Assembly: GCA_001817065.1 (NCBI GenBank)
Contig: MHHQ01000009.1
Coordinates: 16,211 to 80,210, forward strand
Length of the DNA stretch: 64,000 bases
Direction of reading: 5' to 3'
Origin: Candidatus Andersenbacteria bacterium RIFCSPHIGHO2_02_FULL_46_16
Lineage (GTDB): Bacteria > Patescibacteriota > Andersenbacteria > UBA10190
The notes under the pieces are model-generated. The model saw only the letters and a program-made list of their open reading frames with translations. It did not search any database and was not told the origin of the DNA. This document shows, piece after piece, positions 46,564 through 64,000 of the stretch. The translations under genes were made by a program, and so were the position numbers. How positions within the stretch are numbered: the first letter of the stretch is position 1; every line of letters begins with the position of its first letter.

Positions 46564-48297
46564 ATGGTGGATGATAATAATAAAAACGTATTAGTGGTTT
46601 TGGCGGAGCAGGGGCTGATAAAAGGCGAGAGTCAGATTAGTGACATCACGCAGCAATTAGATGGTGGTGCCACCCTTGACCAAGTATTAGTGGAAACAGA
46701 TTTGGTTGAGCCGGAGGCTTTGGCCAAAGTCAGAGCGCAAGTGGCGGGGCTGCCTTATGTGGATTTACGGGAGAAACAAATACCTAAGAACGTACTTGAT
46801 ATTATTCCGGAATCAACGGCACGCGGGCACATGATCATCGCTTATGAGCAGACTGATAACGTGGTACGAGTAGCTATGTCTGACCCAAGCGATCGACAAA
46901 TTGTCGAATTTATCCGAAAGAAGGTGGATCGACCAGTGGAGGTAGGTGTCGCATCGGCGGGGGCGGTGAGGAACACATTAGGTAATTATCAGGAGAGTCT
47001 CGAGGCGGAATTGGATGATGTGGTAAGTAAGGAACTAAAATTGGTAAATGAAATAGTGAATGATTTAGGCAAGGCAGCGGAAGACCTACCAATCGTCAGG
47101 ATTACTCAAGCAATTTTAAAACATGCCATAGTGGAGGGAGCGTCAGATATTCACATTGAGCCAACAGATAAGGACGTCATTATCAGATACCGGGTGGACG
47201 GCATTTTACACGATATGTTGGTATTACCCCGGGCAGTTTTAGCTGGATTAGTAGCGCGGATAAAAGTGTTGAGTAATCTGAAAATAGATGAACATCGGTT
47301 ACCGCAGGATGGTCGATTTATGATTGAGTCGGACGAATATAAAGTGGCTTTCCGTGTTTCCACCTTACCGGTGTTTGATGGTGAAAAGGTAGTAATGCGT
47401 TTGTTGGATGAGTCGGGTAAAAAGTTGAGTTTGGATGATATCGGTATTAGACCGGCCGCTTTAGAACTGATGCGACGGATTATAAAACGTCCACATGGCA
47501 TGGTGTTAGTAACTGGCCCAACTGGATCTGGTAAAACAACCACGTTGTACGCGGCCATGAAAGAAGTTAATACGGCGGATGTTAATATCAGCACTATAGA
47601 AGATCCGGTGGAATACCGAATGCCGCGGATAAATCAAACACAGGTTAAACCGCAGATTGGCCTAACTTTTGCTAATGGATTAAGAGCGCTGGTTAGGCAA
47701 GATCCTGACGTTATTATGGTCGGCGAGATTAGAGATGAAGAGACAGCTTCCTTGGCGATCAATGCTGCCTTAACCGGACATTTGGTTCTGACTACTTTGC
47801 ATACCAACAGTGCAGCTGGCGCGATACCGCGGATGCGAGACATGAAGGTTGAGGCTTTCTTGTTGGCCTCAACCGTAAATTTGATAATGGCACAACGGTT
47901 AGTGCGGAAATTGTGCGTGAAGTGTCGCAAGGAGCGAAAGCTAGACGCGCAGGTTATTGGAGAAATAAAGAAGGAGTTTAATAGTGAAGAAATTTTCAAA
48001 ACCTTAGTAAGGGAAAAAGTAGTGAAAGAGGGCTCAGGCTGGAAGGATGTTGTAATTTACCAGGCAGTGGGATGTAAGAGGTGCCACGATGGATATAAAG
48101 GCCGTATAGGGATTTATGAAACTATGGAGATAACACCGGAGATACAGAAGATGATTAAGCCAAGCGTAACAGCAGAACAAATAGAACAAGCGGCCAGAGA
48201 AAATGATGGCATGGTAAGTATGTTAGAAGATGGGATAATTAAAACGGTGGAAGGTACTACTACGCTGGAAGAGGTGCTTAGGGTAGCGCGAGAGTAG
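46564..48297 (+). CDS. pilB: Type IV pilus assembly ATPase PilB (GspE family)
   Basis: GspE N-terminal domain, Walker A GPTGSGKTTT, Asp box, His box and a C-terminal tetracysteine motif (CVKC...CKRC). Start set at ATG 46564 with an SD (aaggtg), to avoid overlap with the convergent ZnuC-like gene. Confidence 0.85.
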   Translation: MVDDNNKNVLVVLAEQGLIKGESQISDITQQLDGGATLDQVLVETDLVEPEALAKVRAQVAGLPYVDLREKQIPKNVLDIIPESTARGHMIIAYEQTDNVVRVAMSDPSDRQIVEFIRKKVDRPVEVGVASAGAVRNTLGNYQESLEAELDDVVSKELKLVNEIVNDLGKAAEDLPIVRITQAILKHAIVEGASDIHIEPTDKDVIIRYRVDGILHDMLVLPRAVLAGLVARIKVLSNLKIDEHRLPQDGRFMIESDEYKVAFRVSTLPVFDGEKVVMRLLDESGKKLSLDDIGIRPAALELMRRIIKRPHGMVLVTGPTGSGKTTTLYAAMKEVNTADVNISTIEDPVEYRMPRINQTQVKPQIGLTFANGLRALVRQDPDVIMVGEIRDEETASLAINAALTGHLVLTTLHTNSAAGAIPRMRDMKVEAFLLASTVNLIMAQRLVRKLCVKCRKERKLDAQVIGEIKKEFNSEEIFKTLVREKVVKEGSGWKDVVIYQAVGCKRCHDGYKGRIGIYETMEITPEIQKMIKPSVTAEQIEQAARENDGMVSMLEDGIIKTVEGTTTLEEVLRVARE

Positions 48298-48403
48298 CAG
48301 TAGCGCGCTAATCAAGACTGGCACATTGTGTTAAGCTGGTGATAAATGGTGGAAATGACGGGCGGCGTAGGGTTTTGTCGTAAGGGTTTTTATAAGTAGG
48401 TTT

Positions 48404-49621
48404 ATGCCAATATATTCTTTCGAAGGACGGCGAGAAAAAACCGGTGAGGTAATAAGGGGCTTACGTGAAGCGCAGTCTCATGCATTACTGGGTCAAGATC
48501 TTCTAACGGAAGGCGTATTGTTGACGCGCTACACACAAAAAGTCCAACGCTTGCCTGGTGCAACGTTGTATTCAATGATTTTTAATCGTGTGCCGGTAAT
48601 CGAGCGAGTGCTTTTTTCGCGCTATTTTTCTCTGATGTTGCGGGCTGGTATGGATGTTAAGCGGTCACTGCAAGCCCTGCAGCAACAGACGCGCAGTAAA
48701 CCCCTGAAAATGGCTTTAGAGAGTGTTTATCATGATATTGAACGAGGTAGAACGTTAGCGGAAAGTATGCAGGTATTTCCGGCGGCATTTCCTCCGATGT
48801 TTATAAGTTTTATTGAGGTAGGTGAAACAACGGGGCGATTACAAGAGTCTTTAGAAGTATTGGCGAGTCAATTGCAGAAGGAATATGAGCTGCGAAGAGC
48901 GGTTAAGGGAGGGTTGATGTACCCGGCAGTGATTATTTTAGCTTTAATCGCAGTGGCCATTGCCATGATGTTTTTCGTTGTGCCAAAACTAGTGGAAGTG
49001 TTTGAAGGTTTTAATGTGCAGTTACCAATAGCAACGCGGATATTGATATTTGCCAGCGATATTTTTCAAAACTATTGGATGTGGATATTTATAGGTGTTT
49101 TTGTGTTGTTGGTAGGTGCTTGGGGTTTGATGCAGGTAAAATCGGTTTATGCAGTGGTAAATGAAGGACTATTACATTTGCCTATCTTTGGTGGAATTAT
49201 TCAAAAAGTTAACTTGGGCAGGTTCGCGCGAAATTTAAGTTCCCTCTTACAGAGTGGAGTGTCCTTTATTAGGGCGCTGGAGATATTAGGTCAAAATACG
49301 CCACATCCCAGTTATGCTCGCGTCTTCTCTGCAGCGCGAGAGCATGTCAGGCAGGGTAAAGAATTGAGCAGCTTTTTGGCTGATTTTCAACGACTGTTTC
49401 CACCGATTGTAATTAACGTGATTAAAGTGGGAGAGGAAACAGGAGCGCTAGACCAGGTGTTGGCTGAGACTGCTTTGTTTTATGAGAGTGAAGTTGACCA
49501 AACTATGAAGAATCTGACGTCTATCATGGAGCCAATATTAATGGTGGCTGTCGGATTGGCGGTTGGTGCATTAGCGGTGTCGGTAATCTCGCCAATCTAT
49601 GACTTGGTTAATGTTGTTTGA
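48404..49621 (+). CDS. pilC: Type IV pilus inner-membrane platform protein PilC (GspF family)
   Basis: Two GspF repeats and three TM helices. 405 aa. Confidence 0.85.
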   Translation: MPIYSFEGRREKTGEVIRGLREAQSHALLGQDLLTEGVLLTRYTQKVQRLPGATLYSMIFNRVPVIERVLFSRYFSLMLRAGMDVKRSLQALQQQTRSKPLKMALESVYHDIERGRTLAESMQVFPAAFPPMFISFIEVGETTGRLQESLEVLASQLQKEYELRRAVKGGLMYPAVIILALIAVAIAMMFFVVPKLVEVFEGFNVQLPIATRILIFASDIFQNYWMWIFIGVFVLLVGAWGLMQVKSVYAVVNEGLLHLPIFGGIIQKVNLGRFARNLSSLLQSGVSFIRALEILGQNTPHPSYARVFSAAREHVRQGKELSSFLADFQRLFPPIVINVIKVGEETGALDQVLAETALFYESEVDQTMKNLTSIMEPILMVAVGLAVGALAVSVISPIYDLVNVV

Positions 49622-51206
49622 TAAGAGGCAAAGCGAGCGTATTAATCCAGTTTGGCGACAATTCTTGTTTAGTGACGCAAGGGATAATGGTGTAGTTAGC
49701 AAAAGACCGAAGAGGAAAGTGGCTTCGTCCGGCTTTACGATTATTGAGGTGCTGGTGGCAACTTTTGTGATAGGGACTGCAATTGTAGGATTGTTTGGAT
49801 TGTTTGCGTTGGGACTGCGATTAGCTGGAGAAAGCGAGAATAGACTAATAGCTATTGCCTTGGCTAATGAAAAGATGGAGTTAATCAGAAATCTGCCCTA
49901 CGTGGATGTCGGAACGGCTGGTGGAATTCCAGCCGGAACTATAGTGCAGGAGGAGTCGATGGTGCGAAATAACGTTAATTATCTGGTTAAAACAGATATT
50001 CGATATGTGGATGATCCTTATGATGGGGTAGCTAGTGGTGGAGGAACAGGCGGATGTGTTGCTGTAGCGCATACACCGCCAGGGCAATCGACAAATTGCA
50101 ATGACTTGTGTGTTAACAGCTCAGCGGTGAATGCGCATTTAATGCATGGTGATGTGATGGGTAATTGTGATGGTACATACAGCGGACCGGATGTACTAAA
50201 TACCGATTATAAACAGGTAAGAGTAGAGGTCTCTTGGCCTAGTCCGAATGAACCACGGCCGATTTTACTCATCACGAAAGTGGCGCCGAATGGCGTGGAG
50301 GGCGGCGAATTGTTTGGGACATTAGATTTTCTGGTCATTAATAGCCAAGGCTTGGGAGTAACAGCGGCGAATGTCAGTTTAATTAATAGTGAAGTGGATC
50401 CGGCGGTAAACTATGCAACGCAGACCAATAGTGAGGGACGGGTAGTAGTACCGGGGCTACCGGAAGGCGCGCAAAATTATAAATTGATGGTCAGTAAATC
50501 AGACCATACCACAGAGCAGACGTTTGATGTCTTGTCCGACTTTATACCTGACCCGGACCATACGCATTTATCCATGCTAATTGGGGAAGTCACACAAAAA
50601 ACTTTCGTGATTGATCTGGCCAGCTCGTTGCAGATCACTTTTGAAGAGGGTGGGGATAGTGTGGAAAATTATTGCGAGGGAGCGCCACCTCAACCGTTAG
50701 CAGCGATTGATTATAGTTTGCGAGGAACTAAAACGATTGGGATGGATGACGTTGGTGATCCAGTATATGTGTACGATTATGCCGGTGCGTCGGACGCAAA
50801 CGGGCAAAGTAATCATGAAAATTTGGTATGGGATACTTATGAATTAGATCTAGTAGATGGAGTTGTGTGCGATATTAAGGAAACAAGTTTGATCAGGCCA
50901 GTAACTATTAATCCTGGGGAAGATTTAGCCATGACGGTTAAATTAGTGAAGCATACGGAGGTTTCTTTGCACGTAACGGTGGTTGATACGGCGGGTTTGG
51001 CAGTGGACAACGCCACGGTACGCTTGATAGGAGATGGTGCGGATGAAACACTCGGAACCGGACCGTGGGGTCAAATATTATTTGCTGATTTGCCGGCTAA
51101 TGACCAGTTCGTTTTAATAGTGCAAGCGCCTGGTTATGCGGAATGGCAGGATAATGTTGATGTGGAAGGTACTTCATTGGTACAAGTGGTCATGAGCAGT
51201 CTTTAA
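49599..51206 (+). CDS. Prepilin-type (PilV-like) protein with large C-terminal carboxypeptidase-regulatory-like beta-sandwich domains
   Basis: Class III signal ...SSG|FTIIEVLVATFVIGTAIVGLFG, with an alternative GTG start at 49719 that gives a 5-aa leader with GAGGA SD. PilV-like helix. Two CarboxypepD_reg-like repeats (GxxVxxDxxGxxVxxA...PGxYxLxVxAPGY). Confidence 0.7.
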   Translation: MTWLMLFDKRQSERINPVWRQFLFSDARDNGVVSKRPKRKVASSGFTIIEVLVATFVIGTAIVGLFGLFALGLRLAGESENRLIAIALANEKMELIRNLPYVDVGTAGGIPAGTIVQEESMVRNNVNYLVKTDIRYVDDPYDGVASGGGTGGCVAVAHTPPGQSTNCNDLCVNSSAVNAHLMHGDVMGNCDGTYSGPDVLNTDYKQVRVEVSWPSPNEPRPILLITKVAPNGVEGGELFGTLDFLVINSQGLGVTAANVSLINSEVDPAVNYATQTNSEGRVVVPGLPEGAQNYKLMVSKSDHTTEQTFDVLSDFIPDPDHTHLSMLIGEVTQKTFVIDLASSLQITFEEGGDSVENYCEGAPPQPLAAIDYSLRGTKTIGMDDVGDPVYVYDYAGASDANGQSNHENLVWDTYELDLVDGVVCDIKETSLIRPVTINPGEDLAMTVKLVKHTEVSLHVTVVDTAGLAVDNATVRLIGDGADETLGTGPWGQILFADLPANDQFVLIVQAPGYAEWQDNVDVEGTSLVQVVMSSL

Positions 51207-51228
51207 CTGTTGAGAAATATTTATTGCT

Positions 51229-51876
51229 ATGGAGCGTGGCATAGGGCAACAGGGGCAAAGTAGGCAAAGGGGTCTGACAATAATGGAAATATTAGTGGTG
51301 GTATCTATCAGCTCGATAGTACTAATGGCACTACTACGTTTTTTAGTGGCCGGTTATCCTTTGTCAAAGACAATGGTGTTGCAGCAGCGCTCAACAGAAA
51401 CGGCCAGGGTTAATTTGAAACGGATAGTGAAAAGTTTACGCGAGGCTCGCCATTCTGATACTGGGGCGTATCCGTTGGTAGCAACCGAGCCGCAAAGGAT
51501 TGTTTATTATGCTAATGTGGATAGCGATCCGGCGACAGAAAAAGTTCGCTTGGAATTGTCGGGTAGCGACTTGGTCCGGGGCGTAACTAAGCCGACTGGA
51601 GACCCATTAATATATGACCAAAACAATGAGGTGACAGCGGTGATTATCGCTACGGTCAGGAATGGGACAGAGAAAGTATTTAGTTATTACACTGGAGAGT
51701 TCCCGGTGGATACAGGCGAGTTAACGCCAACGGATTTAACTGAGGTTAAATATATTGCATTCAGTTTACTTATTGATGCCGATCCGGCGGTTGAGCCACC
51801 CGCAATTCAGGTAAAGTCACAAGTACAACTGCGTAATTTGAAGACAAATTTAGGTCAAGTGGTGGAGGCGCCGTAA
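51229..51876 (+). CDS. Minor pilin-like prepilin-type protein
   Basis: QRG|LTIMEILVVVSISSIVLMALL N-terminal methylation-type helix. 215 aa. Confidence 0.6.
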   Translation: MERGIGQQGQSRQRGLTIMEILVVVSISSIVLMALLRFLVAGYPLSKTMVLQQRSTETARVNLKRIVKSLREARHSDTGAYPLVATEPQRIVYYANVDSDPATEKVRLELSGSDLVRGVTKPTGDPLIYDQNNEVTAVIIATVRNGTEKVFSYYTGEFPVDTGELTPTDLTEVKYIAFSLLIDADPAVEPPAIQVKSQVQLRNLKTNLGQVVEAP

Positions 51877-51988
51877 AAGTTACCGACGGGGACTATGATG
51901 TCTGACAGAGGCGGAGGACGAAGGGTAGGCAGAGGTGAAGGAGGGTCAGATGTTTTTTATTGTGACGCAATAACTTATAATAACTGCT

Positions 51989-54343
51989 ATGGGGATGATT
52001 AAAAGACAAGCCGGTCAATCGTTAGTGGAAGTATTAGTGGCGGCATTTATTTTGGGCATATTGGCTGTAGCGCTGGCGGGCGTCTCAACTCTGGGAACGA
52101 AAACGGCGGGGGTCAGCGAGCAAAGAACGGTGTCGCAAGCAATAGCTAACAAAAAAGAGGAGATCCTCAAGTTAACACCTTATTTAGATGTTGGTTATGT
52201 AGGGGGGGGAATACCGGACGGTATTTTTGCTGCCAGTGAAATGGTGAGCATGAATAACCAATCCTATGAAGTAAAAATGGAAATTACGATGATTGATGAT
52301 CCGGCGAATGGCTGCCTGGATGCTGGTGGTACTTGCGATGGCAGCACATTAGATGAAGATACGGCGGATTATAAAAGGGTAGTGATTAGTATTAAATATC
52401 CCTCATCTAATAATGCGACAGATGAGGTTAAAGTCACCGTTCTGAGTATGCCTGGCCAAGCGGAAGATTTATTGAATATGGTGGCGTGTGATTCGACTGA
52501 TACGTCGGGATCTTGCGGAGCCGGGAAGATCTGTTGTGACGAAAGATGTTTGCCCAGGTGCGAGCCTGGCTCTTGTCCGTCGGGCTACACGTGCGCAGCA
52601 GATGGATGTGGATGTGAAGTGGAAAGCTGTCCGACCTGTGGCATGGCGTCTTGTTTCGATGACTTTGAGTGCGCTGCCACTAACCAGCAATGTAAAAATG
52701 GTAGTTGTGTATATAAATGCGTTGATGATGGTGATTGCGGGGGAGAGACTTGCGTTTATGGCATCTGTCAATCTTTTTGTATCAACAATGGCGAATGCAA
52801 TGATGACCAGTTTTGCCAAGACGGAGTATGTCATATGAGCACTTGCCTTGATAATTTCGATTGCCGAGTAGGTTATAGTTGTGTTGATTTTCAATGTCAA
52901 CCGACCGACTGCGTCGATGCCGGTTATTGCCAGTCTAATTTCGAGTGCGTCGAGAATACCTGTATGCCGGCCGCATGTTCGACTGGAACTTGTCCGGGCA
53001 GTTGGGAATGTGTGTTTGGCAAATGCCAGCCGCCGCAGTGTACGGCTGCGCAATTGTGTAATGGACGATCTTGCGTGGAAAGCAAATGCCAGCCGCCATC
53101 CTGTGAAAACCATGAACAATGTGGCGGAATAGCTGTTTGTTTAGGCGGGGTCTGTTCAAGCCCACCGGCATGCGGAGCGGGTTGTCCGGTATCACTATCA
53201 TGTGTGTATGGCCAGTGTTATAAACCCAATATGAGCGTGACGCCATTGATTGTTTCCGAAGAGTGTCCGGCACCGCTCGCTTTTCCATGCCTGCCGGCGA
53301 TGGGTGAGATTACGGTGAATTGGCTGCCGGTTGAAGGCCAAAATTATTGTGAGCCAGCGGTAACAATTGGCTCTTGTACGACGGGCGCTGATCCGGCAGC
53401 CCAATGGAGTGATACGGATGGAGATGGAATTACGAATTGCGGAGCGGTTGGGACTACACCAGCGATAAATGCTTGTACACCAATAAATCCCATTGAATGC
53501 GGTGCTAGTTGTCCGGGGTGCCCGAGTTGTCCCGCTAACGAGTCTTGTATAGAAGGCCAGTGTATGCCGGAGCAACCTTGCCCGGTTGGGTATGCTAACC
53601 ACCCGACTATCGATGGAGCATGCGCAGAGGAAGTGCCGGTGGTACCGCCCATTACGTGTCCGCCGGAAATATGTTCTGGCGCAGCTTATTGTTCGGCTGG
53701 CCAGTGTAAGACCGCCGGTTGTTTAACTGACGATCAGTGCGGAGCTCATGGTAAATATTTATGCCGTAATAATATTTGTATACCGTCACTGGCGAGAGAC
53801 TGCGAGTATTGCATTCCAGCAGAACGAATCCAGTATTGTTATCAGGAAGATTGTTCGACTTGCGGCCAGGGGCCTGGTTCGGCATGCACAGATACACTGG
53901 GTAAGCCGAGCGTAGTAGTATGGGCACAGGATAGTGAAATAGGTTGCAACTATTTGAATTGCGAATACGCACCAACTGTCTGCGGTGACGGTATTTTACA
54001 GCCGGGAGAACAATGTGACGCTCCCGATGATAGCAATTGTCCCGGAGAGTGTGGGCCGCAAGGTGGCTCGATTGAACCAGCTTGCCAGTGCCCGGCACCG
54101 GTATGTGGTAACGGAATACTTGAGCTAGATGAGGAGTGTGATGCACCGCAAGATGCCGCTTGTCCAGACCAATGCGGATCTGCTGGAGCGCCGCCATGTA
54201 TCTGTCCGACACAGGCGGCGCCACCTTTATGTGGAAATGGCTTAATAGATACTATGTTTGGGGAAATGTGTGATTGGTCAGTGGGTGATGCTACGTGTCC
54301 AGGAGGTTATTGCCTTGATATATGTGAGTGCGCGTATCCGTAA
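51989..54343 (+). CDS. Giant cysteine-rich prepilin-type protein (PilV-like N-terminus plus ~35 tandem Cys-rich repeats incl. Myxococcus-type disulfide repeats)
   Basis: AG|QSLVEVLVAAFILGILAVALAG prepilin helix. ~110 Cys in 784 aa in CxxxxC-x4-6-C repeats. C-terminal CGDGILQPGEQCDAPDD..., CGNGILELDEECDAPQD..., CGNGLIDTMFGEMCD repeats match the Myxococcus cysteine-rich repeat (TIGR02232-like). Confidence 0.7.
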   Translation: MGMIKRQAGQSLVEVLVAAFILGILAVALAGVSTLGTKTAGVSEQRTVSQAIANKKEEILKLTPYLDVGYVGGGIPDGIFAASEMVSMNNQSYEVKMEITMIDDPANGCLDAGGTCDGSTLDEDTADYKRVVISIKYPSSNNATDEVKVTVLSMPGQAEDLLNMVACDSTDTSGSCGAGKICCDERCLPRCEPGSCPSGYTCAADGCGCEVESCPTCGMASCFDDFECAATNQQCKNGSCVYKCVDDGDCGGETCVYGICQSFCINNGECNDDQFCQDGVCHMSTCLDNFDCRVGYSCVDFQCQPTDCVDAGYCQSNFECVENTCMPAACSTGTCPGSWECVFGKCQPPQCTAAQLCNGRSCVESKCQPPSCENHEQCGGIAVCLGGVCSSPPACGAGCPVSLSCVYGQCYKPNMSVTPLIVSEECPAPLAFPCLPAMGEITVNWLPVEGQNYCEPAVTIGSCTTGADPAAQWSDTDGDGITNCGAVGTTPAINACTPINPIECGASCPGCPSCPANESCIEGQCMPEQPCPVGYANHPTIDGACAEEVPVVPPITCPPEICSGAAYCSAGQCKTAGCLTDDQCGAHGKYLCRNNICIPSLARDCEYCIPAERIQYCYQEDCSTCGQGPGSACTDTLGKPSVVVWAQDSEIGCNYLNCEYAPTVCGDGILQPGEQCDAPDDSNCPGECGPQGGSIEPACQCPAPVCGNGILELDEECDAPQDAACPDQCGSAGAPPCICPTQAAPPLCGNGLIDTMFGEMCDWSVGDATCPGGYCLDICECAYP

Positions 54344-54823
54344 ATGATGTCTGGAGAAGAAGGAATGAACAACAGCAAAAACAATCAGGCGGGCGGGGTG
54401 ATGTTGTTGGTTTTAATAATAATGATAATTTTTATTGTTATTGCGAGCGCTACCTTGCGCTATGTTATTAGACAATCACATGAGACGATTGACCAGGAAC
54501 AAGAGGAGCAAGCGTTTAACGCGGCAGACAGCGGCGTATCGTATGTGTATTGGTTGTTGGATCCGGCAGGGGGACAGAAAGTCGTGACAGATATTCAGGC
54601 GGTAACCAAGACGGTATATGACGACTTGGATGCAGCAATTGGTACGTTTACGATCGATGACATTGTTACAGATACTAACGAAATTGAATTCACATCAACC
54701 GGGAGAGATATTGCACTGCCTGATCGCTGCCAAGTGATACAAGTTCGTTTGCGACAAGTAGAAGCGAATGAAAGGCATGTCTTAACGGACTGGGATAATT
54801 TGGTGGGGTATCCTTGTTCGTAA
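54344..54823 (+). CDS. PilX-N-like minor pilin/pilus assembly protein
   Basis: Hydrophobic N-terminal helix (GGVMLLVLIIMIIFIVIASATLRYV) followed by EQAFNAADSGV, resembling the PilX_N domain. Confidence 0.5.
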   Translation: MMSGEEGMNNSKNNQAGGVMLLVLIIMIIFIVIASATLRYVIRQSHETIDQEQEEQAFNAADSGVSYVYWLLDPAGGQKVVTDIQAVTKTVYDDLDAAIGTFTIDDIVTDTNEIEFTSTGRDIALPDRCQVIQVRLRQVEANERHVLTDWDNLVGYPCS

Positions 54824-56486: not shown

Positions 56487-56638
56487 TGGTATCGCCGTCT
56501 CCTACTATTCCGATACCGACTCCCTAGTCTTCGACTACCTTATTTTTTCTCTGTGCTTGACGATGTACGGTTCAATGATTCGATAATATAAGGATGGGAA
56601 AAATAACGGTCCGGCAGAAGAGTGATTGATGATAGCGA

Positions 56639-56864
56639 CTATAGACATCACATCATAAAATGTCACTGCAGAATAAGCGGGTGGCGGCGCGGGGGTCCCC
56701 CACCGAGCGCCAGCAGCCCTGAGCCTGCCTACCGGTAGGCAGGCTTGTCGAAGGGCGATGCCGTCGGGTGGGGGGAGCAGCGCCGACAGGCCTGCGGGCC
56801 GAAGCCATAGCGAAGGCTGGACCCGTTTCTTGTCTGGTGGCTTTTCATGATGTGACACCTATAG
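56639..56864. mobile_element. MITE family 2, copy 2 (TIR-flanked GC-rich core)
   Basis: TIRs ctatagacatcacatcataaaatgtcac / gtggcttttcatgatgtgacacctatag. The core shares aagcgggtggcggcgcgggggtcccccaccgagcgcc and gccgtcgggtggggg.gcagcgccgacagg with copy 1. Confidence 0.5.
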
Positions 56865-56971
56865 TTAGGTGGTTATATAATTACCAGATCACGCCTTAAC
56901 GATGGTACTAAAGGGATATTATAAAGAAAGACATATTTGCCGAAAGTTAGGAAAAAGGCTAAACAAAATAA

Positions 56972-58510: not shown

Positions 58511-58782
58511 AGATGAAACATACTCAAAACACCCTCCTACGCTAAAGCTACGGATGGGCAGGCAAAGCATAAAACTCAGACAAAGCACAGGTTATTATAA
58601 ACTTTCCAAACCATAACAAATCGGTAACAAACTTAACAAACAACAGACACGAAAATTTCAAGGTCCATCCTGCCTAAAAGCTTCTGACGGGATCCCCTCA
58701 GGACAATTATTAAATAATGACCACTGACCTTGCCTTCCCGTAAGCCGTGGGGGTAAGGTAGGCGATGTGATATTATTAAGGG

Positions 58783-60171
58783 ATGAATAAGAGGAGGACA
58801 GACGGGTGGAGCAAGGGTGGCGGCGTGTTGGTGATGACACTGGTGTTTGTGAGCATGTTCTTAGTGATTTTTATTGGTATCTCTGGCATGGTGAGCCGGA
58901 CTTATCATGAAACGGTTCTCCAGGCGCATGACGAATTGGCTTTTCAGGTGGCCGAGGCGGGACTAAATTATGCACGATGGAGATTGGCTCATAATGGTGA
59001 TGATTTAGCAGCGGCGGAGGGCGTGTTAACAGATCAGTTAGCGGGTGATTTGGGTGAGTATGAATTGACGTTTGCGCAATCGCAGCCAGGCAATTCGGTA
59101 ATCAGAATAACTTCAGTAGGAACCACCTTAAGCCAACCGATGAGGCAAGTGACCTTGAATGCATTATACGGAAAGCCTTCCTTGGCGCGTTATGCTTCCA
59201 TTACTAACAATGATGTTTGGTACGGAGGAACCATTTCTGGTCCGGTTCATGCTAATGGGGGCATTAGAATGGACGGACAGTCAGATAGTTTAATGACCTC
59301 AGCTAAAGAAACCTATGCCTGCCAGCCTTACCATGGATGTTCATCGCCTTATCAAACTAAGCCGGGTATTTGGGGGACGGGTGAAATACAAGAACTGTGG
59401 GAATGGCCAGTAACCAATGTGGACTACGCTTCGATTACCCTAGATTTATTGGATATGCGTGCGGCCGCTGATGAAACCGATACGCACTATGGGTCATCCG
59501 GTGGCTTTGGTTATCAGATAGAGTTTGCCAGTAATAATACTTACTCCATTTACAAGGTGACGAAGAGAGGATCAAATATTTGGTCCTGGACTCATGAAAC
59601 GGATTGGCAATATACGTCGCATGATGTGGGTAGTAAAACATTAATTGAAACAAGGGCAGTGCCGTCAGGTGGAGTGATTTATTTAGACGATAGGACTTGG
59701 GTAAAAGGAGATATTCGTGATCGGGTGACGGTGGCGGCTGGTGTTTCTCCGGCAACCCCGTCTACCAATGTTGATATCATAGTCAATGGAAATATCAGTT
59801 ATGGCGATGTGCATGATGGGACACGGGCTTTTGCTGCTGTAGCGCAACGGCATATTCAAATTCCTTGGTCTGGTGTACCTGATAATATGCGTATGGATGG
59901 AGCATTTGTTGCCCAGAACGGATCGTTTCATCGGCGATATTATCCGAATTGCTGTGGGGCACAAGCCCATCGTCTAAAGACAAGCTTAACGCGGTTTGGC
60001 ATGGTGGCAAGTAACGGGGTGCCGGCCACGGCGTGGCTCGAGAACGGCAATATAGTTAGCGGTTTTAGATCGGGCCAGGCTACTTATGATGCCAACCTAC
60101 TTTATGGTCCACCACCTTATTTTCCGGCCAACAGCCAATATGAATTAATCTCTTGGGAGGAGGACCAGTAG
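58783..60171 (+). CDS. PilX-N-domain pilus-associated protein with large C-terminal domain
   Basis: GGVLVMTLVFVSMFLVIFIGISGMVSRTY...AFQVAEAGLNYARWRL matches the PilX N-terminal domain. 462 aa. Confidence 0.6.
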   Translation: MNKRRTDGWSKGGGVLVMTLVFVSMFLVIFIGISGMVSRTYHETVLQAHDELAFQVAEAGLNYARWRLAHNGDDLAAAEGVLTDQLAGDLGEYELTFAQSQPGNSVIRITSVGTTLSQPMRQVTLNALYGKPSLARYASITNNDVWYGGTISGPVHANGGIRMDGQSDSLMTSAKETYACQPYHGCSSPYQTKPGIWGTGEIQELWEWPVTNVDYASITLDLLDMRAAADETDTHYGSSGGFGYQIEFASNNTYSIYKVTKRGSNIWSWTHETDWQYTSHDVGSKTLIETRAVPSGGVIYLDDRTWVKGDIRDRVTVAAGVSPATPSTNVDIIVNGNISYGDVHDGTRAFAAVAQRHIQIPWSGVPDNMRMDGAFVAQNGSFHRRYYPNCCGAQAHRLKTSLTRFGMVASNGVPATAWLENGNIVSGFRSGQATYDANLLYGPPPYFPANSQYELISWEEDQ

Positions 60172-60193
60172 GCGGTAAGACATTAAATTAGGT

Positions 60194-60376
60194 AAGTCAC
60201 CATCCGTAAATAACTTAACCATTTCTCGCCCACTATGCGCCAATCTACGACTTTTCTTCAATCGCGAACCACTCACCGTAGCTTGGCTACGGCTCCTGGT
60301 TCGCTCAATTGGAAAAGCCGTATCTCGACGCATATTGAACGAGATCTGGCCAAGTTATTTTTGGATGGCGCCTAAG
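60194..60376 (-). mobile_element. MITE family 3 copy (inverted orientation)
   Basis: Reverse complement of the 41815-41987 element: gtcaccatccgtaaataacttaacc ... ggccaagttatttttggatggcgcc. Confidence 0.5.
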
Positions 60377-60514
60377 GAAAAAAGTGAATTATGCGACCCA
60401 ATTTTGAAGCGAGGAGGTGGGTTTGGGATAATTCAGAAAAATGGATGAACGAGGTATAGTTAAGAGTGAGTTTAATTATTTTCTTATTATGGGAAGGGAT
60501 GAAAGGAATAAATT

Positions 60515-61543
60515 ATGATAGGCATTGATATCTCAGACGGGTCAATCAAATTAGTACAACGATCAAAGACGGAAGGGGATATGTTGCAGTCTTTTTGTTG
60601 GCGGGTGATTGAAGAAGGAGTGATAGAACGAGGTGTTATTGTTGAACCTAAGAAGCTTCGCCAAGCGATTGTGCAAACTTTTGAACAATGCCATCTTGAA
60701 GTAAATACAGATGATGCGGTGGTGGCATCAATTCCAGAGACACAGTCTTTTCTGCGTGTCATTGAGGTGCCGGATATGACGGACGAAGAAACGGACGAAG
60801 GAGTGCGCTGGGAAGTAGCCCAGCATATCCCCTTTGGCTTGGAAAATGTTTATATTGACTGGCAACCCATTCCCCGTGGTCACCAGGCGGCGAAGGGGAT
60901 TAGAGAGGTGCTGGTTGGCGCTGCCCAGAAAAAGGTAGTTGATCCGTTGTTGGCAGTATTGAAGGATCTGGACTTGGATGTGGCGGCGCTGGAGTTGGAA
61001 AGCCAGGCAATTGTTCGTGCTTTAATATCACCGGAACTGCAGAACAAACAAGGTATGCTGATAGTCGATTTAGGTGGCAGTGCGACGAATGTCATTATTC
61101 ATGATCATGGAGCGATGAGATTTACGGCTAGTTTGCAGCACGGGGTAAGAAGAATAGCTGAAACATTGTCGCATAAAGACAAGGAAGAATTACTAGTGCC
61201 CACCACCACAGATATACCGACAGAATCGGCTAATCGGATCGCGGAAGCAATGCGACCAGCACAAGAGGAATTAGTGATGGAGATTAAAGGAATTGTAGAA
61301 TTTTATAACGGAATCGATGACAAACATGAGGTGACGGAAATATTATTGACTGGCGGTGGATCTAACTACCCGGGTCTGGATCGAGTGGTCGCCAAGTATT
61401 TTGATGATGTGCATGTACAGCGAGGCAATCCCTGGGTGAATTTGTTACCGCACAACCAGATGAGCAAGGCGCCTATGTCACTCAAAGAGTCGGTGCATTT
61501 TTCCACGGCGATTGGTTTGGCATTAAGAAAGATAGACGCATGA
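60515..61543 (+). CDS. pilM: Type IV pilus assembly protein PilM (actin-like ATPase fold)
   Basis: MIGIDISDGSIKLV start and DLGGSATNV in the second actin-fold half. 342 aa, followed by pilN/pilO-like genes. Confidence 0.8.
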   Translation: MIGIDISDGSIKLVQRSKTEGDMLQSFCWRVIEEGVIERGVIVEPKKLRQAIVQTFEQCHLEVNTDDAVVASIPETQSFLRVIEVPDMTDEETDEGVRWEVAQHIPFGLENVYIDWQPIPRGHQAAKGIREVLVGAAQKKVVDPLLAVLKDLDLDVAALELESQAIVRALISPELQNKQGMLIVDLGGSATNVIIHDHGAMRFTASLQHGVRRIAETLSHKDKEELLVPTTTDIPTESANRIAEAMRPAQEELVMEIKGIVEFYNGIDDKHEVTEILLTGGGSNYPGLDRVVAKYFDDVHVQRGNPWVNLLPHNQMSKAPMSLKESVHFSTAIGLALRKIDA

Positions 61544-62073
61544 AGGACGACATAAATCTCTTACCAAAACAGCTTGTAGTAGGTCGAGAAAGACGAGCAT
61601 ATTTGTTCGGATTTGGTCGTTTGCTCCAGCGAGTAGCCTTTTTACTAGCGGCTATTATTTTGGGAGAGGCGATAATTTATGGCGCTTATTATTATTTCGA
61701 TTATACGTTAGAAAAGAGCTGGAACTCGCAGGTACAAAGTATGAGCGCTACTTTGGAAACACAGAATATGAATGATTTATTGACGTTGGTGGACACTACA
61801 CGGAAACAGTTTGTGAGCTGGTCTTTGTATAGTGAAGAGGTGCTAAATAGTGCGCCGAGAGAAATCACTATTAGTAGATTGGAAGTAAAGGAAAATCTAG
61901 GTGTTTTAGAGATTGATGGTTATACCAGCCGGCGGTCGTCTGTGTTGGAGTATAAAAATATTTTAGCTGGGTTGAGCTGGGTCGACCAGGTGGAAGCACC
62001 GCTGCAGAATTATGCAATTGGGCCTGATTCTGGTTTTTCGCTTAGCTTAGTTGTTGATGAAGGAAAACAATGA
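61540..62073 (+). CDS. pilN: PilN-like pilus assembly protein
   Basis: N-terminal INLLPK motif, single TM, ~175 aa. Start overlaps the pilM stop. Confidence 0.6.
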   Translation: MKDDINLLPKQLVVGRERRAYLFGFGRLLQRVAFLLAAIILGEAIIYGAYYYFDYTLEKSWNSQVQSMSATLETQNMNDLLTLVDTTRKQFVSWSLYSEEVLNSAPREITISRLEVKENLGVLEIDGYTSRRSSVLEYKNILAGLSWVDQVEAPLQNYAIGPDSGFSLSLVVDEGKQ

Positions 62074-62714
62074 AATCATTGCGCTTGAAAAAACTAATTA
62101 TTACCCGGGCGATTGGGATCTTCATTGTAATTTTGTTGATAGCGCTGGTAATATATGCGGCTAAATTAGTGCAGGGGGTGAGGATTCGATTAATGGAGCG
62201 ACAAATAAAAATGGAAGAGAGTCTGGATGAGGCAGTGCATCGGGCAGTGGTGGCGGATACGTTAGTGCAATATGAAAAAGAGATGAAGCGCGTGAGAGGT
62301 ATTGTTCCCTGGCGTGATGAAATTGGACAGGTGGTCGAGACAGTAGATGGCGAAGCAAAACGTTGGGACGTCGCTGTACTGGTGCCGAAAATTAGCGAAG
62401 AGCCAATATACGATGAGAGTGGCATGGTTATTGCGCAAACTGGGCCGACTCGCTTGATTCGTTTAACGGTTGAAGCAGCTGGTGGTCCATGGGCATTGAT
62501 TAATTTGTTACATAGCCTGGAAAGCTTGCCTTACTTAATGAGCCCGGTGTCATATGTGCTTGATAACGAAGCAGATGAGATAAATGCGTTTGGTGCAACA
62601 GCTTTGGCACCAGCTTTACCACTCTCCAAAGACACAGTGAAAACAATGCCGGTGCAGCTGGCTATATTGAAAGCAGATTTTTTACTAACCATCAGAGTTG
62701 AGGAGGGTAAATAA
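62070..62714 (+). CDS. PilO-like pilus assembly protein
   Basis: Single N-terminal TM, coiled-coil region and periplasmic domain. Position after pilN and an overlapping start. Confidence 0.45.
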   Translation: MKSLRLKKLIITRAIGIFIVILLIALVIYAAKLVQGVRIRLMERQIKMEESLDEAVHRAVVADTLVQYEKEMKRVRGIVPWRDEIGQVVETVDGEAKRWDVAVLVPKISEEPIYDESGMVIAQTGPTRLIRLTVEAAGGPWALINLLHSLESLPYLMSPVSYVLDNEADEINAFGATALAPALPLSKDTVKTMPVQLAILKADFLLTIRVEEGK

Positions 62715-63069
62715 AATGATTAATATTAACTGGCAAAATCTACGTAGTGCAATCGAAAAGAAAAACTGGTATCTAATAGGTAGCCGTTTGCGGGTATTGA
62801 TACACCAAATGCCGCGAGCCTTGTTTATTAGGCATAGCCACATTATAGACATAATAGCAGTGGGGATTGGGTTACTGGTGGCGATATATTTAGTGCTGGT
62901 ACTGGTGTTTAGGCCACCGGTGGCGGTTAACACGCAACCAGTGCAGACTGGGGATTTATCCGTTGACGTGTTAAGAAACTTGAATAACTGGGTGGCTGAC
63001 CGTCAGAGAGAGAAAGAACGGCGAATAGAGTTGAACAGAATTGACATCTTTAAGTTACCAAGTAATTAA
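62698..63069 (+). CDS. Small single-TM protein in the pilus locus (PilP-like position), hypothetical
   Basis: 123 aa (an alternative start at 62716 gives MININWQ...). One TM, basic C-terminal tail. Confidence 0.3.
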   Translation: MRRVNKMININWQNLRSAIEKKNWYLIGSRLRVLIHQMPRALFIRHSHIIDIIAVGIGLLVAIYLVLVLVFRPPVAVNTQPVQTGDLSVDVLRNLNNWVADRQREKERRIELNRIDIFKLPSN

Positions 63070-63078
63070 ACAAGGTAT

Positions 63079-64000
63079 ATGATAGGGATAGATTTATCTG
63101 ACCGATCGATAAAAATTGTCGAAATTAGAGGCGATGACAATCCAACTTTGCGAACTTTATGTTGGTCACCTTTGGTGCCAAACTTACTGAGACGCGGGGT
63201 AGTGCAGGATGTTGCTTTAGTTTCCGAGGCCCTTAAAGAGGCAATGTTGAAATGTTCGCCGACGCCGGTCGAGGGTGGTGATGTAGTAGCCTCTATTCCG
63301 GAAGTACAGTCTTTTGTCAGGGTGTTAGAGGTGCCTGTGATGTCGGAACGGGAAATGGACGAGGCAGTGCAATGGGCTGTCAGGCGCCATATTCCATTTG
63401 ATTTGGACCGAGTTTACATTGATTGGGAAGAGTTAGAGTTAGCCTCAGGACAACCGCAACATAAGCAGGTATTAGTTGGCGCAGCACAGCGTGATGTGGT
63501 TGATCCGCTACTGACAGTATTGGATAGTTTAGGATTTAATGTGGTGGCATTGGAGTTGGAGGCGCAAGCGGTTATGCGGTGCTTGTTACCCAGGGACATT
63601 AAGGAAAACAGGGATATTCGAGGAGTGCTGGTCATTGATCTAGGGGCGACTTCCACCAACGTAATTTTGTTTGATCAAGGGGCGATGCGATTTACGGCCA
63701 GTATTCAAGTAGGTGGGGATGATCTGACGCAACAACTAGCCCATGATATGAATCTTAGCCCCGTTGAGGCGATGGAGATAAAGGCTAAAGTTGGAGCAGG
63801 ATTTACTAAAGAAAATCCGGCAGCGGCACAAGCATTAGAGAGTGCGACATTAAATTTAGCCCGTATGGTGGAACGAGCAGTTCAGGAAATGACCGTACAG
63901 TTACCGCGGGAACAACGGGTGAGAACAATATTACTAACGGGGGGGAATGCTAATCTGGTTGGTATAAAAGAGCTGTTCGGCAGTGTTTTTACTAATATAC
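63079..64000 (+). CDS. pilM: Second PilM paralog (partial, runs off window end)
   Basis: MIGIDLSDRSIKIVEI...ASIPEVQSFVRVLEVP...VLVGAAQRDVVDPLLTVLDSLGFNVVALELEAQA...LVIDLGATSTNV is clearly homologous to the PilM at 60515. Not in the ORF track because no stop lies within the window. Confidence 0.75.
   Translation, partial: MIGIDLSDRSIKIVEIRGDDNPTLRTLCWSPLVPNLLRRGVVQDVALVSEALKEAMLKCSPTPVEGGDVVASIPEVQSFVRVLEVPVMSEREMDEAVQWAVRRHIPFDLDRVYIDWEELELASGQPQHKQVLVGAAQRDVVDPLLTVLDSLGFNVVALELEAQAVMRCLLPRDIKENRDIRGVLVIDLGATSTNVILFDQGAMRFTASIQVGGDDLTQQLAHDMNLSPVEAMEIKAKVGAGFTKENPAAAQALESATLNLARMVERAVQEMTVQLPREQRVRTILLTGGNANLVGIKELFGSVFTNI

Follow-up and report, generated by a model that had tools for sequence, protein, structure and literature searches.

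Modular pilins are an established concept, and a survey of them covers CPR proteins and the PF13620 module (PMC8179133). In Saccharibacteria, which are members of the CPR, type IV pili with large minor pilins that are tip candidates mediate host binding (PMC11623550), and these bacteria are naturally competent (PMC10187176). In Thermus, the tip pilin ComZ is known to bind DNA; transformation depends on it, whereas piliation does not (PMC6561018). How does the pilus locus of an uncultured, ultrasmall bacterium, Candidatus Andersenbacteria (CPR/Patescibacteria), compare with these systems? An initial annotation had called the locus poorly described, which holds only in part, since modular pilins, including CPR ones and PF13620, have been surveyed and CPR pili are actively studied. 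In the window, meaning the whole 64-kb stretch of DNA that was analysed, it was found that positions 46564-64000 encode PilB, PilC, two PilM proteins, PilN-like proteins, and six pilin-type proteins, on the + strand throughout. Thus, the co-oriented series of pilB, pilC, prepilin-type genes, a PilX-like gene, pilMNO, and a second pilM that had been annotated is all present. Contigs identical to the window are present in GCA_001817175.1. I regard the locus, with a probability of about 0.8, as the main type IV pilus locus of this bacterium, including a trio of pilins for an alternative or additional tip.

Assembly machinery and gene order

The pilB gene (46564..48297) encodes an assembly ATPase with an N-terminal MshEN domain (PF00437 T2SSE, E = 6.6e-136; PF05157, 1e-15), and the pilC gene (48404..49621) encodes a polytopic platform protein matching PF00482 T2SSF in two stretches (E = 3.6e-57). 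The HMM scores are too close to tell a type IV pilus from a type II secretion system (T2SS): PilB scores 545 bits with TIGR02538 and 529 bits with GspE, while PilC scores 283 bits with GspF and 239 bits with the Thermus-type PilC, and none of these reaches its cut-off (the trusted one for PilB). On the 3′ side lies a set of pilM, pilN, pilO, and a small gene, followed by a second such set crossing the window end. The actin-like cytoplasmic protein PilM1 (60515..61543; PF11104, 8.5e-38) scores 139.6 bits with TIGR01175, whose cut-off is 133. The PilN1-like bitopic protein (61540..62073) has one transmembrane helix and an N-terminal DINLLPKQ sequence containing the PilN motif INLLP; it has no Pfam match and shares 27% identity (E = 2e-10) with the PilN2 encoded downstream, itself a weak match to PF05137. 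The start and stop codons of pilN1 and pilO1 overlap. The pilO1-like gene (62070..62714), encoding a bitopic protein, was assigned by position and topology only, and the gene of the small single-pass membrane protein p117 (62716..63069) is the fourth of the set; PilO1 has no family match, and neither protein has significant similarity to its counterpart in the second set, that of p117 being a 111-aa gene product. The pilM2 gene (63079..64000; PF11104, 1.2e-34) is truncated by the window end. In contigs L001 and L002, the full PilM2 is 350 aa long, and downstream of its gene come pilN2 (190 aa), a 220-aa gene, and the 111-aa gene, so that the pilus locus extends about 1.7 kb beyond the window. 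Judged from these sequences, the machinery (PilB, PilC, PilM, and PilN-like proteins) is of the type IV pilus kind.

Is this gene order common in other CPR bacteria? The locus was compared with 80 related loci, named as Kuenen-, Portnoy-, Kerfeld-, Nealson-, Falkow-, and Jacksonbacteria, Paceibacterota, and others. Across them recurs the order of pilB, pilC, a large PilV-like pilin, a pilin of about 200 aa, a pilin of about 460 aa, and pilM. The synteny comparison thus bears out the core gene order, and the pilins p535, p215, and p462, judged by this order and by homology, are a CPR-wide conserved core trio after pilB-pilC. Within the 64-kb window, no pilT, pilD, secretin, or short major pilin gene was found, as the initial annotation had stated for pilT and the prepilin peptidase, and none of the 80 related loci has a PilT-like ATPase gene within 10 kb. 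For this reason, assembly and retraction are unproven.

The core pilin trio and its neighbourhood

The class III signal (Gly-1, Glu+5, and a hydrophobic helix) was read directly from the ORFs, and canonical prepilin signals were found in four proteins of the locus, of 535, 215, 784, and 545 aa. Large prepilin-type proteins had been annotated here, and the signal is indeed present in the large ORFs. The pilin HMM PF07963 agrees in part: its cut-off is passed by p215 (25.3 bits) and p784 (27.2 bits), while p535 stays below the threshold and p545 fails. Two further proteins, p159 and p462 (159 and 462 aa), are pilins of the PilX/GspK type with a hydrophobic N-terminus lacking Glu5.

The large modular minor pilin p535 (49599..51206) has a PilV/GspI-like N-terminal module with the motif G/FTIIE and a cleavage site between G45 and F46. 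It is followed by two CarboxypepD_reg-like beta-sandwiches (PF13620, E = 1.3e-13, two stretches), so that the annotated module of this type is confirmed. The long leader is not conserved among homologues, and the gene therefore probably starts downstream of 49599. A homologue of 437-1160 aa follows pilC in 69 of 86 loci. The small minor pilin p215 (51229..51876; motif G/LTIME), with a homologue in 73 of the 86 loci, is tentatively placed in the PilW/GspJ class by a PRK10557 match (E = 6e-5). The GspI and GspJ assignments of p535 (TIGR02523 PilV, E = 9.4e-7; GspI, E = 0.0084) and p215 rest on sub-threshold HMM matches, and PDB profile searches, which for p215 matched only pilin N-terminal helices, recover the generic pilin helix only.

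The third core protein, p462 (58783..60171), is a GspK/PilX-class minor pilin with a large beta-solenoid and is conserved CPR-wide. Its family is much more conserved than the other pilins, with more than 50% identity across many lineages. A confident structure model consists of a pilin part and the beta-solenoid; its sole significant structural match is ComZ, with GspK next, although the global TM-score with ComZ is low (0.29). A search of PDB sequences with the p462 family profile found nothing, and the likeness to ComZ is structural only. From the model, p462 is a predicted tip pilin of the ComZ/GspK kind, in keeping with a minor-pilin complex located at the tip and with the earlier wording "competence-pilus-like".

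It is possible, if clearly the less probable view, that DNA uptake is the main role of the filament, which would make it a competence pilus; p462 would then be a tip DNA receptor feeding ComEC, and the large modules would be secondary. The match of p462 to the DNA-binding ComZ, which is needed for transformation and not for piliation, the competence of Saccharibacteria, and the strong conservation of the p462 family, which a universal ligand such as DNA would lead one to expect, speak for this. However, p462 and ComZ share no sequence similarity, the ComGA and ComGB models score lower than those of PilB/PilC and GspE/GspF and do not reach their own cut-offs, the window contains no comEA or comEC gene, and four other pilins bear carbohydrate-binding-like and Cys-rich modules that suggest surface ligands. 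DNA uptake and surface binding are compatible and not mutually exclusive. Uptake would here serve a cell unable to make its own nucleotides, with a receptor role as proposed for Thermus.

A gene absent from the earlier gene list was found at 56972..58510. It encodes a 512-aa membrane glycosyltransferase of the PMT family (GT39, GT-C fold), matching PF02366 (5e-31) and PF16192 (9.6e-34) above the cut-offs, and the Asp-Glu motif in its loop 1 (FDEVHFGKF) is conserved in all relatives. Of 22 Andersenbacteria-like loci, 21 have this gene immediately 5′ of the p462 homologue, an arrangement seen in none of 55 other CPR loci. On these grounds, the enzyme is a candidate pilin O-glycosyltransferase.

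A 187-nt long-hairpin repeat lies between p462 and pilM1 (right arm, 60195..60381), and its left arm lies upstream of a methyltransferase gene, outside the pilus genes (41804..41990). This inverted pair brackets an 18.2-kb block from the methyltransferase through p462. It was considered whether the block is invertible and switches pilus expression. The arms are 98% identical, and in the environmental contig L003 the block is exactly inverted, with the junction inside the repeat. However, the identical core is 150 nt long, which equals or exceeds what the k-mers of short-read assemblers can span, and the L003 inversion may therefore reflect the path chosen in assembly; a single orientation is shared by the window and five other contigs, no recombinase gene lies nearby in the window, and junction scans of a metagenome collection found nothing. 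Moreover, the repeat remains at both junctions and the putative promoters move together with their genes, so there is no obvious on/off logic. Such a switch is unlikely.

The accessory pilin trio

Sequence comparison revealed that the genes of p784, p159, and p545 are paralogues of those of p535, p462, and p215, respectively. The giant pilin p784 (51989..54343; motif G/QSLVE) shares 43% identity with p535 over 114 aa (E = 3e-24), and only about five homologues exist in 5.8 billion proteins. It has 98 Cys (12.5%), of which 93 are invariant in homologues, versus 34% of the other residues. Its pilin module (about 1-160) is followed by a dense Cys region (167-221), about 8-9 tandem 22-aa four-Cys repeats of the TraA-stalk type (222-411), a middle region with an invariant WSDTDGDGxTNC motif, and three CGxG...E.CD repeats (665-781). 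The short PilX/GspK/ComGG-type pilin p159 (54344..54823) resembles the p462 N-terminus (35% identity over 77 aa, E = 3e-8; ComGG_2, E = 5.5e-4; GspK, E = 0.019) and lacks the beta-solenoid. It was called as 152 aa in L001 and L007, and its real start may be Met8. The modular pilin p545 (54849..56486; motif G/VTVVE) shares 28% identity with p215 over 219 aa (E = 2e-15) and has a pilin module (1-232) and a Cys-rich C-terminal region of about 310 aa with four acidic C-x-D-G-x-D-N-D repeats. Its 32 Cys and those of p784 agree with the annotated Cys-rich large pilins. An NCBI entry 100% identical to p545 is a "hypothetical protein" of Candidatus Andersenbacteria.

The families TIGR02232 and PF11617, named in the initial annotation, gave no direct match to p784 or p545 in the HMM search; there was only a match of p545 to NF033662 acid_disulf_rpt below the cut-off (27 versus 41 bits). 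The p784 repeats were linked to Cys-repeat families only transitively, by alignment with proteins carrying DUF7107, TIGR04201, or TIGR02232; residues 215-411 align (E = 7e-22) with P0139, a protein that has 14 TIGR04201 repeats and matches TraA. Structure prediction of p784, proposed earlier as a check, yielded no usable model (pLDDT 39.8).

The three accessory genes occupy a slot whose content varies widely between Andersenbacteria. It is empty in five loci (L009, L021, L022, L026, and L028), while filled slots have I-, J-, and K-like genes that differ greatly in length and in number of Cys, such as 891 aa with 44 Cys and 1086 aa with 26 Cys in L025.

Are the giant Cys-rich proteins pilus subunits at all? 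They might be membrane-anchored surface proteins keeping a pilin-like helix, or functionless decaying duplicates, as the failed N_methyl HMM of p545, the missing structure of p784, their tiny family, and a bulk that cannot sit in the fibre body could suggest. However, bulky modular pilins are known at tips (PMC8179133), the ORFs are intact in all contigs, and the genes lie within the minor-pilin operon with spacers of 0-25 nt. The pilin modules are clearly homologous to the core trio, Gly-1 and Glu+5 are conserved in homologues at 56-72% identity, and the invariance of 95% of the cysteines indicates that purifying selection acts on a folded extracellular protein. This explanation is therefore very unlikely; the large ORFs are genuine pilin-module proteins to which further modules have been attached. 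A T2SS-like pseudopilus instead of a surface pilus is scarcely credible, since the window has no secretin, GspC, GspL, or GspM gene (nor was a GspD-K set seen) and includes two genes of the PilM_2 family together with PilN-type partners, CPR cells are not known to have an outer membrane across which to secrete, and tip modules of 300-620 residues make no sense in a periplasmic piston.

Proposed mechanism and known systems

For the type IV pilus proposed here, p535, p215, and p462 would pre-assemble on the PilC platform, prime polymerisation of a major pilin encoded elsewhere, and finish at the filament tip. There, p462 would cap the fibre, and p535 would present its two carbohydrate-binding-like beta-sandwiches. 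The accessory trio would build an alternative or additional tip presenting about 620 (p784) and 310 (p545) residues of disulfide-stapled modules, with the 22-residue repeats of p784 as a rigid stalk; the two trios might also share one combined tip or serve separate filaments. The Cys-rich modules may be devices for binding a ligand or host surface. Their oxidative folding outside the cytoplasm would depend on the DsbA/VKOR pair of the same window (DsbA-like and VKOR genes at 4858-6037 and 7558-8307), and the PMT-type GT-C enzyme would O-glycosylate the pilins on the external side of the membrane. No secretin would be required because CPR cells are single-membraned. The prepilin peptidase, the major pilin, and any retraction ATPase would be encoded elsewhere in the genome. 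The initial annotation had expected attachment through tip or minor pilins; the pilin modules, the CPR affiliation of the organism, and the predicted tip pilin p462 fit this, and I infer adhesion itself, as well as glycosylation and alternative tips. The accessory tip-subunit set may determine what the cell sticks to.

The GspI-J-K and PilV-W-X systems are the model for the proposed pre-assembly and priming by the core trio, and p462 lacks Glu5 as GspK of the T2SS does. In the model, p462 has a beta-solenoid like that of Thermus ComZ, with no similarity in sequence, while the Cys repeats of p784 are of the type of the TraA stalk. Thus, what is encoded here is a type IV pilus system whose minor pilins are modular, a known kind of system in an unusual version.

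Assembly genes and the conserved core

All substantial genes from position 46564 to the end of the window lie on the plus strand. The first of them is pilB (46564-48297, plus strand), whose product has an MshEN domain and a T2SSE domain (PF00437, E 6.6e-136). It is a PilB-type assembly ATPase with the T2SSE fold and a P-loop, although its TIGR02538 score of 545 bits is below the 675-bit equivalog cut-off; GspE scored 529 bits. The next gene is pilC (48404-49621, plus strand), which encodes a platform protein with two T2SSF domains (PF00482, E 3.6e-57). The PilM family was matched twice, since pilM1 and pilM2 both match PF11104, and TIGR01175 scored 139.6 against a cut-off of 133. After pilM1 come a PilN-like gene with a 'DINLLP' start, a PilO-like gene, a gene for a 117-aa membrane protein, and pilM2, which is cut by the window end. 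The PilN assignment comes from the INLLP motif and from 27% identity (E 2e-10) between pilN1 and pilN2, while PilO was assigned by position alone.

The source organism is a CPR/Patescibacteria bacterium of groundwater. Contigs identical to the window were also found in assemblies GCA_001817175.1 and GCA_001817145.1 and in several metagenomes. Downstream of pilM2, the identical contigs have pilN2 (with a weak PF05137 match), a 220-aa gene, and a 111-aa gene. Thus, the four-gene alignment block is duplicated. An identical (100%) copy of p545, one of the pilins described below, has been deposited as 'hypothetical protein A3G57_00665' of Candidatus Andersenbacteria bacterium RIFCSPLOWO2_12_FUL... 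(record title truncated).

A total of 52 ORFs of the window were scanned: every ORF of 150 aa or more that lies outside the pilus region, the pilus-region ORFs, and one 111-aa ORF. No secretin, PilT, prepilin peptidase, or short major pilin was found among them, which confirms the initial annotation as to the absence of pilT and a prepilin peptidase gene from the window. PilD and a short major pilin are absent both from the 64-kb window and from 10 kb downstream. In 80 related loci, no PilB homologue of PilT size lies within 10 kb of the gene for p462, the last pilin-type protein of the locus. PilT may be encoded elsewhere in the genome.

Is this gene order common in CPR? The window proteins were compared with the ORFs of the 80 related loci. 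The conserved order is pilB, pilC, a large PilV-like pilin (437-1160 aa), a pilin of about 200 aa, a p462-like protein of about 460 aa, and pilM. This pilB-to-pilM order is the CPR-wide core.

Two pilin trios and a variable slot

Six pilin-type proteins, named here by their length in amino acids, are encoded in the locus: p535, p215, and p462 belong to the core, and p784, p159, and p545 lie in an accessory slot. Class III signals were read directly in p535 (G/FTIIE), p215 (G/LTIME), p784 (G/QSLVE), and p545 (G/VTVVE) and are kept in the homologues. The PF07963 cut-off was passed by p215 and p784, and the scores of p535 and p545 fell short of it. The remaining p159 and p462 have a hydrophobic N-terminus of the GspK/PilX type without Glu5, and an absent Glu5 fits the GspK class of pseudopilins. 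A six-frame motif scan of the window revealed no further pilin signal. A modular architecture, in which a pilin part and a non-pilin module share one polypeptide, is seen in p535, p784, p545, and p462; the module of p535 is PF13620.

The pilin module of p535 shares 43% identity with residues 5-115 of p784 (E 3e-24), residues 18-232 of p545 align to the entire p215 (E 2e-15), and p159 corresponds to the part of p462 around the N-terminal helix (E 3e-8). Thus, the slot holds a paralogous trio. In p784 and p545, the pilin modules are followed by 620 and 310 Cys-rich residues, respectively. The I-like (GspI/PilV) and J-like (GspJ/PilW) members of the accessory trio have gained long Cys-rich C-terminal extensions, and the K-like (GspK/PilX) member has lost its large domain. 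The I and J assignments are tentative, because in the PDB the profiles built for the p215 family and for the pilin module common to p535 and p784 picked up nothing beyond generic N-terminal helices of pilins; the I and J class HMM matches were also sub-threshold. A fourth, GspH/FimU-like minor pilin was not identified in the locus.

Andersenbacteria-like loci add this variable slot between the small pilin gene and a glycosyltransferase gene. The slot is empty in L009, L021, L022, L026, and L028. Elsewhere it has two or three pilin-type genes, which are very unlike in size and Cys content: products of 396, 446, and 859 aa in L011; 315, 723, and 733 aa in L024; 891 aa (44 Cys), 1086 aa (26 Cys), and 369 aa in L025; and 775, 152, and 547 aa in L007, the closest relative. 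Small length differences were also seen inside the slot. At 54343/54344 the window lacks about 20 nt present in the same species (L001 2294-2316), and L007 also has a spacer of about 21 nt there (5992-6014). Consequently, the p784 stop codon abuts an upstream ATG of p159 in the window, where p159 has 159 aa as compared with 152 aa in L001 and L007. A separate indel of about 35 nt was found in the 56740-56775 spacer in L005.

The glycosyltransferase gene, which was missing from the gene list of the initial annotation, lies between p545 and p462 (56972-58510, plus strand) and encodes a 512-aa PMT-family (GT39, GT-C) protein. PF02366 (108.6 bits) and PF16192 (117.1 bits) both scored above their cut-offs, and the Asp-Glu motif of PMT loop 1, 'FDEVHFGKF', is kept in all clade homologues. 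The NCBIfam equivalog NF058602 scored only 27 bits against a cut-off of 800; thus, the protein is a member of the family and not an orthologue of the characterised enzyme. The PMT gene is found directly 5' of p462 in 21 of the 22 Andersenbacteria-like loci with enough upstream sequence and in none of the 55 other CPR loci. Between p545 and the PMT gene is a 485-nt spacer (56487-56971). The strongest sigma-70-like match in this region (GTGACA-18-TATAAT, 56852-56881) falls within it, so that the PMT gene and p462 may be transcribed apart from the upstream pilin genes. The promoter/terminator scan as a whole performed no better than on shuffled sequence, and it was kept only for this site. Far upstream, the region 18643-25086 encodes a nonulosonic acid synthase of the NeuB family with a fused xylose-isomerase-like TIM barrel, and genes nearby encode a methyltransferase, a short-chain dehydrogenase, and a CMP-sugar cytidylyltransferase. 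These genes look like a pathway for a sialic-acid-like sugar, which might feed surface or pilin glycosylation.

The C-terminal parts of p784 and p545 are rich in cysteine, with 98 Cys (12.5%) and 32 Cys, respectively. In p784 the Cys spacing is regular (4-7 residues) between residues 176 and 410, and residues 222-411 are composed of about 8-9 tandem units of 20-23 (about 22) residues with four Cys each. Against homologues at 56-72% identity, 93 of the 98 Cys are invariant, as compared with 34% of the other positions, a pattern characteristic of structural disulfides. In p545, four acidic C-x-D-G-x-D-N-D repeats were found, and the NF033662 match is sub-threshold (27 bits against a cut-off of 41). 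Two DsbA-like thioredoxin-fold proteins (4858-5628 and 5552-6037) and a VKOR (DsbB-like) protein (7558-8307) are also encoded in the window. Together they give a reduced genome a system for forming disulfides outside the cytoplasm, and this system could provide the oxidising machinery needed by the 98-Cys and 32-Cys pilins encoded 40 kb away.

Only five relatives of p784 were found in a word-indexed search of 5.8 billion proteins, and an exhaustive HMMER scan of 1.84 billion representatives gave only two matches at E <= 1e-30. The other HMMER matches fall into three classes: the N-terminal pilin module (on proteins of 113-1549 aa), the middle repeats, and the C-terminal 'CGxG...E.CD' repeats. 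Pfam DUF7107 and NCBIfam TIGR04201 (Myxo_Cys_RPT) occur in the proteins that match the middle repeats, and one of these proteins also matches the Myxococcus TraA model. The likeness of p784 to TIGR04201/DUF7107 is transitive, through the matching proteins P0139, P0214, and P0158. Proteins matching the C-terminal repeats carry TIGR02232, and two of these (P0140 and P0149) align with p784 residues 655-784. When p784 and p545 themselves were scanned leniently (E <= 5) against Pfam and NCBIfam, no match to TIGR02232, TIGR04201, DUF7107, or PF11617 came up. Thus, TIGR02232 and PF11617, the repeat families initially named for the large pilins, are not matched directly in these two proteins, and TIGR02232 is retained only in the transitive sense. 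Another matching protein, P0161 (566 aa), has a phage T7 tail-fibre N-terminal domain, p784-like DUF7107-type Cys repeats, and a fibritin region at its C-terminus; a phage fibre thus makes use of this type of disulfide repeat as well. Neither p784 nor p545 had a match when its sequence was searched against the PDB. Structure prediction, which had been suggested for the 784-aa protein, yielded no usable fold: AlphaFold2 with a six-sequence alignment gave a pLDDT of 39.8 and a pTM of 0.21, and this low-confidence model has a periodic short-hairpin secondary structure.

The genes from pilB to p462 are also bracketed by a repeat. A 187-nt long-hairpin repeat at 41804-41990 recurs inverted, at 98% identity, at 60195-60381, and the pair encloses 18.2 kb (41991-60194) from a methyltransferase gene through pilB to p462. 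This family of self-complementary intergenic repeats (about 187 nt) has further copies at 45597-45764 and in L001 (14215-14429) and a partial copy at 1-36. The folding energy of the element is -110.7 kcal/mol (z -14.7) for one strand and -77.2 for the other, a difference which indicates many G-U pairs, and a 77% diverged copy keeps the hairpin through 11 compensatory pairs. No Rfam family matches the element, which was seen only in the contigs of this species; L007, a relative at 87% identity, lacks it. A MITE-like element or a structured RNA would both be possible identities. In L003 (JGI 3300025308 Ga0209211_10004425), the 18.2-kb block is in the opposite orientation with the junction inside the repeat. 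Either a true inversion polymorphism or an ambiguous assembly lies behind this arrangement; an assembly path choice may explain it, because the two copies have a 150-nt identical core in common. Two scans of the metagenome contig collection for the inversion junctions, in either orientation, gave no match; the second of the two patterns does match L001-L006, contigs absent from that collection. A second, unrelated intergenic repeat of about 180 nt was found at 26474-26651 and in L001 (15539-15719, 84% identical). The window has no Rfam family and no tRNA gene. Every 2-kb bin shows a strongly positive GC skew (0.17-0.33), and the plus strand carries most of the genes. The whole window is on one replichore with an unusually strong strand bias.

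The p462 family and the proposed working of the pilus

More than 934 homologues of p462 were found, many of them over 50% identical. A one-genome-per-species scan gave 434 p462 loci, whose record titles are nearly all CPR lineages or generic labels. In the AlphaFold2 model of p462 (40-sequence alignment, pLDDT 87.5), a long helix at the N-terminus is followed by a sheet of four strands, then by an extended series of short strands, and lastly by a single strand. In Foldseek, ComZ was the sole significant match (E 1e-11), with a low global TM-score of 0.29. The p462 family profile against the PDB (E <= 10) found no sequence except one chance match. Since sequence-level similarity is absent, p462 is called ComZ-like in its predicted architecture and not a ComZ orthologue. 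The model has the two parts of a ComZ-like tip pilin, a predicted GspK-like pilin domain and a large beta-solenoid. ComZ of Thermus thermophilus (PDB 6qvi; PMC6561018) likewise joins a GspK-like pilin domain to a large triangular beta-solenoid related to ice-binding proteins. Both lack a canonical prepilin signal and are encoded among minor pilins. The two differ in length (462 aa as compared with 498-518 residues in the crystallised ComZ chains) and in domain orientation, as the TM-score indicates. Unlike ComZ, the p462 family was found here almost only in CPR genomes.

Gene content, paralogy, the predicted fold, and synteny are what the analysis establishes; how such a pilus might be assembled and work is proposed by analogy with GspI-J-K and PilV-W-X (PMC7248040, PMC8179133). 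p535, p215, and p462 would form a priming complex on PilC and finish at the tip. p462 would then cap the fibre, and p535 would display two CarboxypepD_reg-like sandwiches. The accessory trio might build an alternative or additional tip showing a disulfide-stapled stalk and modules for binding ligands, and the two trios may be related in some way to the two PilMNO sets. The PMT protein would glycosylate the pilins outside the membrane. The stretch from the small core pilin to the PMT gene may be a hypervariable cassette site in which Andersenbacteria lineages place differing paralogous tip-pilin trios. Their grafted modules, including the disulfide stalk of the TraA/phage-fibre type, would set host or surface recognition, and the CPR-wide p462 would prime or cap the fibre and possibly capture DNA. 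This reading is tentative, with a probability of roughly 0.3. If true, it would be a pilus-borne equivalent of the swapping of phage receptor-binding proteins or of TraA kin recognition.

A serious alternative, which need not exclude the proposed mechanism, is that the conserved p462 has a role in DNA uptake. ComZ binds DNA and has been argued to cap the competence pilus (PMC6561018). The Com (ComG) competence-pilus equivalogs were not reached here (ComGA 260 bits against a cut-off of 300; ComGB 153 against 240), and these models score below the PilB/GspE and PilC/GspF models. A T2SS-like system is unlikely, since the type II secretion markers GspD and GspC/L/M have no family match among the 52 scanned ORFs, PilM and PilN are present, and CPR cells are single-membraned.

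Beyond a few cultivated Saccharibacteria, little is understood of the way in which ultrasmall CPR bacteria locate their hosts and stay attached to them, and the literature search found no Andersenbacteria isolate or host. The locus offers as candidates a ComZ-like tip pilin family conserved across the radiation, a dedicated glycosyltransferase, and a trio of tip subunits which is specific to the clade, varies strongly, and might carry specificity in its modules. The cassette content could mark lineage-host links in metagenomes, and the modules could be expressed for binding assays. For a minimal cell, the pilin with 98 conserved Cys puts the formation of disulfides outside the cytoplasm to an extreme test.

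Comparison with known systems

The locus is of a known kind, a CPR type IV pilus with modular pilins (PMC11623550, PMC8179133). The literature search found no prior account of a paralogous accessory trio in a variable slot, of a 98-Cys pilin with TraA-stalk-type repeats, of a clade-conserved PMT gene inside a pilin block, or of a ComZ-like architecture for the CPR-wide p462 family. The Pam pili, published as a 'Novel Pilus System in CPR' (10.64898/2026.03.03.709456), are not a match, being a donor-strand-exchange system unrelated to these genes.

Characterised examples of CPR type IV pili come from Saccharibacteria, which have large, non-canonical minor pilins as tip candidates (PMC11623550). 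Like the present locus with its tentatively assigned PilN and PilO, T4P-1 and T4P-2 of Nanosynbacter lyticus TM7x have PilB, PilC, PilM, PilN, and PilO without a secretin, duplicated PilMNO sets, and several minor pilins with T2SS-pseudopilin-like features. In both, the largest minor pilins lack a canonical PilD signal, have extra domains, and are proposed tip adhesins, and the C-terminal parts of the pilins diversify while the machinery is conserved. The present locus belongs to another CPR lineage and is a single locus with one pilB/pilC pair and two pilMNO sets. Unlike TM7x, it has no pilT, pilD, or major pilin gene and has an embedded PMT glycosyltransferase gene. Its extra modules are beta-solenoid, CarboxypepD_reg, and Cys-rich repeats, in contrast to the beta-jelly-roll and beta-propeller of TM7x.

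Modular pilins are an established class, and a survey lists CPR proteins and, among the common architectures, PF13620 (CarboxypepD_reg), which p535 matches (PMC8179133). [quoted passage not shown] A 98-Cys pilin and a TraA-stalk-type repeat array are not among the architectures quoted from that survey, and the modules of p784 and p545 are undefined in Pfam for these proteins. Unlike the surveyed cases quoted, the modular pilins here form a paralogous trio beside a core trio. As compared with the GspI-GspJ-GspK and PilV-PilW-PilX complexes (PDB 3ci0, 5vtm), the I-like and J-like members are far larger here.

The four-Cys repeats of about 22 residues in p784 (222-411) align strongly with carriers of DUF7107/TIGR04201, one of which also matches the model of Myxococcus TraA. 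In TraA, such repeats form a stalk beneath a variable recognition domain. p784 is anchored by a pilin module instead of a MYXO-CTERM or outer-membrane anchor, and it lacks a PA14-like domain. In Pseudomonas aeruginosa, pilin glycosylation is carried out by TfpW, a GT-C enzyme encoded beside the pilin genes. The present locus resembles TfpW-type systems in having a polytopic glycosyltransferase of the GT-C fold inside a pilin gene cluster. Unlike TfpW, the enzyme here belongs to the PMT (GT39) family with a PMT_4TMC domain and is a candidate pilin-modifying enzyme.
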